Assembly: GCA_017499595.2 (NCBI GenBank)
Contig: CM039002.1
Span: 2,852,001 to 2,916,000 of the forward strand
Direction of reading: 5' to 3'
DNA from: Psilocybe cubensis
Taxonomy: Eukaryota
Length of the DNA stretch: 64,000 nt
Below, one piece after another: positions 60,925 to 63,900 of the stretch; the first letter of the stretch is position 1; each line of letters begins with the position of its first letter. Below the pieces are notes generated by a model. The model saw only the letters and a list, made by a program, of their open reading frames with translations. It made no database searches and was not told the origin of the DNA. A program made the translations under genes and the position numbers.

Positions 60925-63900
60925 TTATTCCCTCGCGTAAATAGCATACAATGCATGTTTCAAGTTTCCCCCATTTACGGAAATGCGTAGCCATTGAGAT
61001 ACATCATTAACAAGGTCATGAACATTACCCTCCTTTACGCATCTATTTCCAGTAGTAATGCCGTCGTGGAACCACACGTCCCCTTGCAGGTCAACATACC
61101 GAGAAACAAAATGATGTTGCCCGCCGTAGACAACCCCAGTAAGCTTATACTCTACGTTGAAACTATCCGATTTGAACATAATATCAGGGTTTATAGCAAA
61201 CCGTGGCGAGCATATATCCACTGTCATAATGTAAGGTAATCGTTCAACCTTATGGCATAGCGACATATATACGATATGCTGATTTTGTGCACACGAAGGG
61301 CAATTCTTCGAACTCAATCGTTGAGCATCGCTCAGGTTAAAACCTAAACTGTCTGAAATAGAAGACACCTCCTGGGAGTCGTCGTGGAAAACGCCAGTGC
61401 GTGCCACACTTATATATTCGCCTAGTCGCATTACGGGTCTTTGGTCATTGTAGCCGCATTTACTGCACACGAGAACAGACATTCCAGAAGATCGCTGGCC
61501 CATCACAGCGGTCATAACTCTGTCAATGTATGTCATATTTGGACCCATAGGAAAATCAAGCGGGCTGCGTGAGTGCATATCGTTTCTGACGTCGTTTCGT
61601 GCGCTCTCTAGAGAAATTGATCCATTCTGCACAAGTGCGAATTGTCCGCTGAGTCTGTCTAATAACGGTGTCAAATCACTGAATCTATTGGTCCACATCT
61701 CAGGTGCACTTATCCATAGGTTATATAACACGGTAAAGATGGAGTCGTAACTGCAACTGTAGTTGTCCGCGTCCCACTTTGTACCTACAGGTAGGACCGC
61801 AAACTCGGAGGGTGTGCTTAGCAACATTCGTTTCCTCGGTCCTATACAGTCTGAGCGAATTGGTTGGCGCTTATTGCGCTTATCTTTTGCCCTGTCGGTG
61901 ACAATTGCCTTAACACTGTTGAGAGACCAGGTGCCGTCCTTTTCCGGAGTTCTGATAAGCTGCTTTGATGAAGAGACTGCCAAGGTAGGATGCCAGTCTG
62001 TACCAATGGATTGCGATACGTCGAGAAGCATGAAAGACCGAATTGTCGGATTCCTTAATCCATGCAACACGCCGTCTGGAAGCTGTCCATTGTATTTCAT
62101 GGTGGTGATATGATCTAATATATTGAGTTCACGGAATTCCTGGCGCAGGTGCCCACTAATACCCTTTGTAATCTTAGACGCATCGAATCTACCGAGTAAG
62201 ATGGTACCACTGGCGTTCGAACTTCTAGATACACAGGTGTAATAAGACGAATGATCCTTACAATGATCTAAATGTATCAAGTTATAATCTCGCGTCTTAC
62301 CTTGAGACGAATAATCGGTCATGGCAAAATTGGGCAGCACTAATACCTGCTGGCGGTTTACATTGATTTTTGTGCCAGACTTGAGAGTACATGTTACTCG
62401 AGACGACGTTCGCGTAAGTGGAACAACATTAACAGGCAAGTCAGCTAATGATACAGGGTTCGGCGGTCTGATTAATTCCACGAACAGCGTATCAAGTACA
62501 GGTCTACCAAACGCACCAACAGAAGATTCCCATCCTACGACGACAGCCTCCTGTCCTTTAGTGATACACAACTCTGTGGCGTCGTTATGCCGTATCATAA
62601 CTGGCAGACCTACGCACAGAGAAAGTTTTGCTGGCACTTGTTCGCTAGAACAGGCGCTGCGACCCCATAGGGCTTCCTGAAGACGCTGGGACATCTTTGT
62701 CTGTTTGGTTGCTTTAGACGATCCTGATGGTCGTCCGCGAGGCCTGCGAGTTTCTCCTTCTTGTGTACCCAGACTATCGACAGAGAAAAAATGATGCAAT
62801 GTACGTCCGCTCTCTTTAGCGTATCTTGCGATGCCCTGCTCATTGAACCTATCCTTTTGATTATTCCACGCAGTGATAACAGATACGTTGCGAAAAGCAG
62901 GGTCAGTCAATATAGGTTTACCTTCAATAGTCGTCAGTTTAGAAGCTAACCTTGACTTGAGGAACGATATATCAGCGTCTGTACAGGCGGCATACCGCAT
63001 GTTTTCAAGTGCAGTGCGCAACTTTGCGTCTTCCTCAGTCTGCGTTTTTTGTCTCATGTTTTGTTTTAGAATAACGACAGTCGTGAATTGGTGCCAGAAT
63101 ATCTTGCCTAGAGTAGCTTCTTGCTCGGACACCTTCATGCGAGCGTCTTGCGTATGTTTAATGGAAGGACTATAAAAGGGGAGATTACCTACCGGCGGTA
63201 GCTGAGCGAAGTCACCAGCTAAGATCATTGATATACCTCCGAACAGTGTATCGTCGTTAAACACTTGTGACAGACGTCTACTAATGGCATATAAATCCCT
63301 CGACGACAGCATAGATATTTCATCAATAAAGATATACTTGACACCCTTTAATCGAGCTCGTACGTCATTTATTACTGCGACTTCGTTTTTTGAAAAGTCT
63401 TGACCACGATCCGACTTGGACCGTATTCCTAATACACTGTGATAAGTAGATCCGTTGAGGAGTGCAGCAGCGGTACCTGTGGGTGCGAGAACCACAAATC
63501 GGTGAGATTCGCCTCTCGACTCAAACATATGAATGATAGATTTGATCACTTGACTTTTGCCAGTACCGCCCATGCCACCGAGATGCATCCTCAGCTGACC
63601 AGGCGACAGCAAACTAGCGTGATTGGCAACAATACGGAAAGCCCTTTCCTGTTCCGTATTCAAGGTGAAATCGGCGACTGTAGAATCTACTAACACATTA
63701 TGTTCCATTTGCTTTGCCTTGTACGACCTGAGCAGATAATCCGAAGAAACTACTTTGACGTCATTAGTAGACTCTTCGTTGGAAATATGAATGTTTGTTA
63801 TATCATCTGAGGGATCTGAAGGCACGTAACCGGACAACTTCTGTTTAAACAGTCTAATTTTTTCAGCTTTTATTAGAGATGCCCAGCTCGTATGCGTCTT

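Follow-up and report, generated by a model that had tools for sequence, protein, structure and literature searches.

Does the transposase of a fungal rolling-circle transposon carry a ubiquitin protease of its own? The question is raised by a 64,000-nucleotide stretch of the Psilocybe cubensis genome (GenBank assembly GCA_017499595.2, contig CM039002.1, positions 2,852,001 to 2,916,000 of the forward strand), which we refer to as the window and in which all positions below are counted. Near its end, a minus-strand frame of 1024 codons (60925..63999), stop-free and with no start in view, encodes the helicase part of a Helitron-like Rep-helicase (RepHel) protein and runs past the window edge, and in that one frame, with no intervening stop, the helicase is joined to a C-terminal domain of about 290 residues. 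A sequence-only reading had taken this domain for a deubiquitinase resembling the ubiquitin-specific proteases (USPs). We find a predicted fold, a pattern of residue conservation and a recurrent fusion to the transposase that agree with a highly divergent USP, one that standard domain models miss.

A Pfam scan of the visible open reading frame (ORF) finds PIF1 (PF05970) at residues 113-324 with an E value of 6.6e-28, plus related P-loop models, and the same scan of the last 325 residues gives no match. Since the ORF is open at the window edge, the Rep and DUF6570 parts would lie past base 64000. The in-frame continuation beyond the helicase is confirmed in the translated ORF, as are all the motifs that had been quoted for it (WDADNYSCSYDS, CSKC, CPSC and YKLTGVVYGGQHHFVSRYVDLQGDVWFHDG), and the Cys, His and Asp codons that had been singled out coincide exactly with those given here. 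In the list and throughout, domain residues are numbered in P0002, the last 325 residues of the visible ORF, whose residue 1 is encoded at 61902-61900.

61903..63999, minus strand: PIF1-type helicase part of the RepHel ORF, with the Pfam PIF1 match at 63028-63663
61798..61902, minus strand: variable linker with basic clusters (KDKRNKR ... RKR, 61825-61893), pLDDT 54-60
60928..61797, minus strand: predicted USP-fold domain (AlphaFold2, VIA-align, Foldseek), P0002 residues 36-325 or visible-ORF residues 735-1024, ~290 amino acids
61753-61755, minus strand: candidate catalytic Cys50, first residue of the long helix 50-65
61456-61467, minus strand: first CxxC, CSKC (residues 146-149), of the predicted finger zinc ribbon
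61291-61302, minus strand: second CxxC, CPSC (residues 201-204), of the predicted finger zinc ribbon
61111-61113, minus strand: candidate catalytic His264, first residue of strand 264-270
61063-61065, minus strand: candidate third triad residue Asp280, directly after strand 275-279 of the His hairpin
60925-60927, minus strand: stop codon of the RepHel ORF, at the end of the USP-fold domain

The predicted fold and its conserved residues

AlphaFold2, run on P0002 with a 64-sequence alignment, returned a model with a pLDDT of 90.5 and a pTM of 0.86, in which low confidence is confined to residues 1-35, the linker. When this model was compared with the PDB by Foldseek, 392 of the best 500 matches had E values at or below 0.001 and all of the matches listed were USP-family chains, headed by USP18 (E 1.9e-9, probability 1.00, TM about 0.5). 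VIA-align placed USP12 at the top, with a Z score of 16.8 and a root-mean-square deviation of 5.3 Å over 254 aligned residues; its best 50 matches are all of USP fold, have Z scores of 14.9-16.8, span model residues ~31-325 and come from USP12, USP46, USP54, USP30, USP1, USPL1, USP18, USP14, CYLD, USP2, Ubp8, USP9X, USP11, USP21, USP35 and USP36. Among the predicted viral structures of BFVD, giant-virus USPs lead (E 5.6e-10), and coronavirus polyprotein segments appear from about 3e-5. The structural comparisons (Foldseek E 1.9e-9, VIA-align Z 16.8) thus bear out the USP-like fold that had been proposed for the last ~290 residues, and as modelled these residues form a highly divergent USP fold of clan CA, with a predicted thumb, palm and fingers and a four-cysteine zinc ribbon.

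The candidate catalytic residues sit where such a fold should hold them. Cys50 opens a helix, His264 opens a strand, and Asp280 follows the partner strand of the same hairpin, which is the customary placement of the triad in the USP fold. From the invariance of Asp280 and its register in the hairpin we infer its role as the third member, and the alignment and model together suggest a complete Cys-His-Asp triad.

The family to which the domain belongs is large. When 1.84 billion cluster representatives (clustered at 50% identity) were searched exhaustively by phmmer with P0002, 1151 proteins matched at E<=1e-3; the number falls to 471 at E<=1e-10 and to 52 at E<=1e-30. Family members are 25-48% identical to the window copy. 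The few named relatives are 'hypothetical protein' entries of Agaricomycetes (Mycena, Flammula, Auricularia, Phlegmacium), none with a precomputed Pfam domain. Indeed, the Pfam gathering score of PF00443 or PF13423 is not reached in any of 187 relatives or 4 full-length frames, and we therefore class the domain as a divergent USP-fold family and not as a member of Pfam UCH; because standard domain models miss it, annotation pipelines call the family 'hypothetical protein'. In the ESM Atlas the nearest entries are unnamed Basidiomycota clusters (0.97-0.98) and the next are clusters that are 100% Pfam UCH (0.94, 0.91), a result that serves as a lead only.

Within this family, eight columns are invariant in P0002 and 63 short members: S49, C50, D53, C146, C204, Y259, H264 and D280. 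In a broader alignment of 178 family sequences to the profile (hmmalign; each denominator counts the sequences with a residue in that column), the Cys50 column holds Cys in 171/172, the His264 column holds His in 158/158, and the Asp280 column holds Asp in 153/156, the others being two Asn and one Ala. The four zinc-ribbon columns hold Cys in 169/169, 164/170, 153/158 and 157/157. The triad residues that the sequence-only reading singled out are therefore close to invariant in the 178 aligned sequences. Judged from these alignments, the putative active site is strongly conserved while the remaining domain drifts.

A residue-level link to genuine USPs comes from 28 diverse giant-virus ORFs, found by a Cys-box motif scan and all recognised as Pfam UCH (best E 4.1e-65). 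Aligned with this set by hhalign, the family profile scores a probability of 92.8% and an E value of 4.1e-7 over 152 columns; both family CxxC motifs are paired with the CxxC pairs of the USPs, first with first and second with second, and His264 is paired with the invariant His of the USP G-H-Y motif. In many USPs, though not in all, the fingers carry such a CxxC...CxxC ribbon. With the USP/UBP deubiquitinases at large (Pfam UCH PF00443, which we take to be MEROPS family C19, and of which USP12/USP46, USP30, USP1, CYLD and the giant-virus USPs are examples), the domain shares the fold at Z 15-17 over about 250 residues, the element order of Cys box, CxxC...CxxC finger zinc ribbon and His box, and a predicted pose of ubiquitin in a co-fold described below. 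It differs from them in having only about 10-15% identity, a Cys-box consensus of WDxxNYSCAYD where genuine USPs have G.xNLGNTCYMNS, a shorter loop before the catalytic His, an Asp three residues past a conserved Trp and ahead of an additional conserved G-I-x-T-G segment, and a position at the C-terminus of a transposase. Such a very divergent branch of the USP fold would justify a new profile, as a Pfam entry or a MEROPS subfamily.

Fusion to the transposase and its known counterparts

Whether the joining of helicase and protease is peculiar to this one copy can be answered from its relatives. Among those listed with at least 900 residues, 16/17 carry PIF1 and 6/17 the full set of DUF6570, Helitron_like_N and PIF1; the latter six are 2,094-2,598 residues long and bear the domain at their extreme C-terminus. 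Relatives of 560-900 residues that match the window protein align with it, in 27/29 cases, from its helicase half (start residue 210-468) to the C-terminus. Many database proteins of ~700 residues (P0003, P0010, P0056 and others) start at window-ORF residue 315 or 334; to judge by these start points, they are probably gene calls from an internal Met of the giant RepHel frame, with no separate architecture.

Metagenomes provide a further sample of the family. A pattern derived from an 8-sequence alignment picked out 606 stretches, of which 511 were confirmed and 80 loci kept. In 67 of the 70 loci with more than 600 nt upstream, tblastn finds a helicase upstream on the same strand, and in 51 of those loci it lies in the same uninterrupted frame as the USP-like domain. 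Intact frames of 2,546-2,823 codons occur in 18/80 loci; the long frames tested are DUF6570, Helitron_like_N and PIF1 proteins by Pfam in 4/4 cases, as are, by precomputed domains, 3/3 further proteins of 2,573-2,811 residues. No OTU match was found by Pfam in the long relatives or in the full-length frames tested. The fusion that had been proposed from the window alone is thus a conserved one (67/70 loci), and on this comparison of sequences we regard the RepHel-USP fusion as ancestral, with the domain order DUF6570-Rep-PIF1-USP and of Helitron2/HLE2 type. DUF6570 is a marker of the HLE2 (Helentron/Helitron2) group in the available part of Li et al. 2024 (PMC11417382); in the HLE2 assignment made here, the window shows the PIF1 part only and DUF6570 and Rep are known from relatives.

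Compared with the window copy over 56 loci, the helicase is 45-62% and the USP-like domain 28-42% identical; the two values are rank-correlated (rho 0.60), a figure that is descriptive only as the loci are interrelated. In the linkers that join the two parts, the last 70 residues before the domain hold 7-18 Lys or Arg, and KKRK/KRRK clusters recur; from their composition these basic clusters are possibly a nuclear localisation signal. Three loci (L008, L011 and L023) have USP-like ORFs of 342-420 codons without a helicase match in the 900-1,900 nt that precede them; these are perhaps degenerate copies, or else the domain standing alone, possibly after domestication.

Deubiquitinases in Helitron-like elements are known, and the present family has to be set beside them. 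Li et al. 2024 (HELIANO) name Pfam UCH as one of 20 domains that Helitron-like elements stably carry; they find it almost only in HLE2, with enrichment in subgroups c and d (mostly lungfish and axolotl), and count it with the 17 domains whose ORFs are separate from RepHel (PMC11417382). That HLE2 UCH resembles the family described here in being a USP-type domain associated with DUF6570-marked elements; in that paper it is Pfam-detected, lies in non-RepHel ORFs and occurs in vertebrates, whereas the family here is invisible to Pfam, fused to RepHel and, in its named hosts, found in Agaricomycete fungi (PMC11417382). A further precedent is the VTD domain: according to Erven et al. 2022, the RepHel proteins of animal Helentrons include VTD domains with biochemically shown deubiquitinase activity, Helitrons also bear OTU domains, and the authors propose that Helitrons gain from deubiquitination by differing enzyme classes, with VTD shielding proteins needed for transposition from proteasomal degradation (PMC9741609). 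VTD is likewise a deubiquitinase inside the RepHel frame of HLE2-type elements and has the same presumed benefit, but it belongs to a different enzyme class with a mirrored Cys...Asp...His order, is described in that text without a finger zinc ribbon, has animal hosts and has demonstrated activity (PMC9741609). Membership of the window domain in VTD was considered and rejected on its Cys50...His264...Asp280 order, its finger zinc ribbon and its USP fold matches; VTD and OTU structures are absent from the listed Foldseek and VIA-align matches, an absence that is no evidence by itself. The OTU domains of Helentron/Helitron2 elements are likewise papain-clan, ubiquitin-related proteases on rolling-circle transposons (PMC9741609, PMC11417382), and differ in fold family and in lying upstream of RepHel, as reported in the available part of Li et al. 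(PMC11417382).

In the open-access papers searched, no account of a fungal RepHel with a fused USP-fold domain came to light; two papers on fungal Helitrons, Castanera et al. 2014 (PMC4289320) and Kojima 2025 (PMC12730594), contain no mention of ubiquitin, OTU or peptidase and of ubiquitin or protease, respectively. What is new is thus a Pfam-invisible, transposase-fused fungal USP subfamily, and what is known is that Helitron-like elements carry deubiquitinases; the principle itself is not new. That this large subfamily (1151 clusters, triad kept) supplies an active deubiquitinase tethered to a rolling-circle transposase is a tentative proposal drawn from models and comparison, and one we hold at a little under an even chance. 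If it is true, Helitron-like elements have a further class of deubiquitinase beside OTU and VTD, possibly independent of the vertebrate HLE2 UCH, in a family abundant in mushroom-forming fungi and soil metagenomes, and Helitron transposition would in general require escape from ubiquitin-dependent control. That one transposon superfamily has repeatedly recruited unrelated ubiquitin proteases argues for ubiquitin-dependent restriction or turnover as a real hindrance to rolling-circle transposition, and a tethered USP would offer, through a Cys-to-Ala change, a clean genetic handle on that idea.

Proposed ubiquitin recognition and catalysis, and competing roles

What would such a domain do? We consider it reasonably probable, from the model, the conserved residues and the predicted complex described next, that it is a catalytically competent USP, directed at ubiquitin, whose action is in cis or local. 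Its fingers would grip the Ile44 face of ubiquitin, the C-terminal tail (72-76) would thread the cleft to Cys50 and His264, and the isopeptide bond after Gly76 would be cleaved. Tethered to the transposase, the protease would work chiefly in cis or in its neighbourhood. Consider, for example, a RepHel molecule that has been ubiquitinated: the domain would strip ubiquitin from this very large protein and so protect it from the proteasome. It could also remove ubiquitin from other proteins on the DNA at which RepHel operates. Histones and PCNA, which the sequence-only reading had put forward as targets, are conjectural ones.

The predicted complex was obtained by ESMFold2 from domain residues 36-325, zinc and, as a stand-in, a 76-residue ubiquitin from a viral contig, with the family alignment left aside. 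Three runs scored 0.60, 0.62 and 0.64 (median 0.62), against 0.01 for the best of 3 controls; the mark used for this test is reached by 51/78 solved complexes and 2/108 mismatched pairs, and a partner closely related to the real one can reach it as well. Contact agreement between runs was at least 65% and the partner pLDDT at least 82. In the predicted interface, which is the canonical one, the fingers and palm pack against ubiquitin residues 8, 42, 44, 46-49, 68 and 70, and the tail 72-76 lies in a cleft lined by domain residues 123-127, 260-265 and 318. Ubiquitin Gly75 contacts both Cys50 and His264, so that the model sets the scissile end of ubiquitin between the two.

Several results weigh against an active, ubiquitin-directed USP, and they concern the sequence, the alignment and the predicted complex in turn. 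Among 122 short relatives, Pfam UCH gives a single sub-threshold match (20.6 bits, E 3.8e-4, against a cut-off of 23.9), and a Pfam match on the domain occurs in 0/41 long relatives and 0/4 full-length frames. Neither phmmer of P0002 (best E 1, to RRP40) nor a profile hmmsearch (ZNF462 0.091, PAN2 0.13, USP18 0.9) finds anything significant among PDB sequences. In the hhalign comparison with the 28 giant-virus USPs, the Cys boxes of the two sets stay unaligned even at mact 0.01, and Asp280 is not paired with the USP Asn/Asp, where a 9-residue insertion places the E291 region instead. USPL1, which is directed at SUMO, and USP18, directed at ISG15, score like ubiquitin-specific USPs in VIA-align, so the fold leaves the substrate undefined. 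The calibration of the co-fold was made without the zinc ion that the co-fold job included, and, with many USP-ubiquitin complexes solved, the pass may reflect structures memorised by the predictor, which makes it a measure of likeness and not of binding by this copy. As to the third triad residue, the E291 column holds Glu in only 98/150 sequences, far less conserved than D280, and for this reason we keep D280 in that role. The USP order and intact triad that the sequence-only reading had described therefore stand in part: the zinc fingers and His box are supported by hhalign and the Cys, His and Asp are near-invariant in the family, and the Cys box and Asp280 are left unaligned with those of genuine USPs.

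The competing explanations can be weighed on the same evidence. The domain might be an active USP-fold isopeptidase for another modifier, SUMO or NEDD8/Rub1, clearing RepHel or chromatin proteins of it. USPL1 (Z 15.9, 15.7 and 15.5) and USP18 (Z 15.8) are tied in VIA-align with the ubiquitin-specific USPs, the VTD domains of Helitrons cleave NEDD8 besides ubiquitin according to Erven et al. (PMC9741609), and the sequence of the domain has diverged too far to reveal its specificity; the co-fold with ubiquitin, at 0.62 against a control of 0.01 and with canonical Ile44-patch and tail contacts, is weak evidence the other way, and we think a different modifier unlikely. A non-catalytic, ubiquitin-binding module, a pseudo-USP of the PAN2/USP39 type that recruits RepHel to ubiquitinated chromatin or repair sites, would sit well with the failure of hhalign to recognise the Cys box and with the rank of the inactive USP-like domain of PAN2 as best USP-related PDB sequence match, at an E value (0.13) that is not significant. 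Retention of Cys, His and Asp in 171/172, 158/158 and 153/156 sequences, against ~30% identity elsewhere, is what catalysis and not binding alone would lead one to expect, and it makes a purely binding role improbable.

The size of the RepHel protein invites a further comparison. Coronavirus papain-like proteases combine polyprotein processing with deubiquitination, and like the present domain they are USP-like thumb-palm-fingers domains inside a very large replication protein; the domain could be a cis-processing protease that cuts the ~2,600-residue, multi-domain RepHel polyprotein, and coronavirus polyprotein segments are indeed among the BFVD fold matches, at E values of about 3e-5 to 5e-4. 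Cellular and giant-virus USPs match the fold far better (about 6e-10 for the giant-virus USPs against about 3e-5), the linker is variable in sequence, and no conserved Gly-Gly site was found beside the family domain: 'GG' occurs in the 70 residues upstream of it in only 2/73 relatives. That count argues against self-cleavage at a ubiquitin-like Gly-Gly site next to the domain, and cis-processing in general, an idea already present in the sequence-only reading, seems to us quite unlikely. A last explanation, that the motifs are a chance pattern or that the frame reads through by accident in a single copy, could appeal to the single-sequence searches, which gave no USP match; it is refuted by 1151 relative clusters, a confident model, a Z score of 16.8, the hhalign probability of 92.8% and a fusion present in 67/70 loci. 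Our preference for a catalytically competent, ubiquitin-directed USP carried by the transposase is set against these alternatives.

The polymorphic insertion and its surroundings

The RepHel-USP gene does not stand alone in the window, and its surroundings bear on both its mobility and its possible partners.

51921..64000, minus strand: strain-polymorphic insertion with the RepHel-USP gene and downstream ORFs, at least 12 kb in the window
57619..59817, minus strand: Spt5-like paralogue (NGN + KOW1), ORFs of 471 + 260 codons in one frame
51920..51967, minus strand: candidate 3' terminus of ~48 bp with a GCCGT...ACGGC hairpin, a multi-copy stretch at which run X10 diverges (51920)

Public sequencing runs were compared over window positions 50000-64000. 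In run X10, which shares its species label and its study with X1, contigs end at 51920/51967 and go on into other sequence, and depth is 0 from 52335 to 64000, while in X1, X12 and X13 the whole stretch is covered at even depth. The absence of 51921-64000 from X10 and its presence in X1, X12 and X13 place the RepHel-USP gene within an insertion, 12 kb long or more, that is polymorphic between strains. The diverging continuation at 51920 is also present in X1 (one contig) and X12 (21 reads), so some samples appear to hold both forms. The polymorphism suggests recent mobility of a Helitron-like copy whose low-coordinate boundary alone lies in the window. Part of the X12 and X13 reads carry two substitutions near or within the USP-like domain, G>A at 61203, which changes Arg234 to Trp at a non-conserved position, and C>T at 61798, which is synonymous; these strains may hold two slightly different copies or haplotypes.

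At that boundary, ~48 bp at 51919-51967 are multi-copy: other sequence precedes them in 187 and 155 reads and follows them in 177 and 161. The terminal 31-mer at 51920 occurs once within the window. From this pattern the segment is probably the conserved 3' terminus of a repeat or element family. Its hairpin folds no better than shuffled sequences (z -0.09), and the idea that the boundary is a tRNA was rejected, with 0 tRNA genes there.

The Spt5-like gene lies within the same insertion and on the same strand as RepHel, and it is the gene that the sequence-only reading had joined with the protease in a chromatin and transcription 'counter-defence kit'. Between its two ORFs stands one stop, at 58402-58404, possibly an intron or else a nonsense codon. 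Pfam matches on them are sub-threshold (Spt5-NGN, E 2.7e-4; KOW1, E 1.5e-3), and NCBI lists a 100% identical protein of 744 residues as SPT5 of Psilocybe cubensis; only 13 relatives turned up, two of them identical records and the others 26-34% identical. As a conserved association, the kit does not hold. An Spt5-like match is present in 0/80 of the related metagenomic loci, 27 of which have at least 2 kb downstream, and downstream ORFs of at least 120 residues cluster only among near-identical copies, the largest cluster comprising 5 loci. A conserved downstream partner gene was accordingly rejected, no gene being common beyond close copies. With no Spt5-like match in the 80 loci and no common downstream gene, the kit is at most a feature of a copy or lineage, and the Spt5-like gene is probably copy-specific or lineage-specific cargo.

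On the low-coordinate side, the insertion is flanked by plus-strand ORFs at 50840-51964 with Arg-Asp/Arg-Glu repeats, 14 copies of a degenerate 54-nt unit, which look like a host gene with an RD/RE-rich tail beside the insertion point. Further away, an inverted repeat at 10358-10935 has 120-nt arms that are 99% complementary and stand 338 nt apart, with a nested pair of 86-nt arms (92%), and could be a foldback element or one resembling a miniature inverted-repeat transposable element. Two direct-repeat pairs between 23803-24065 and 27103-27372, each of about 50 nt with 78-79% identity and spaced ~3.3 kb apart, point to a tandem duplication that has since diverged, or to a repeat present twice.

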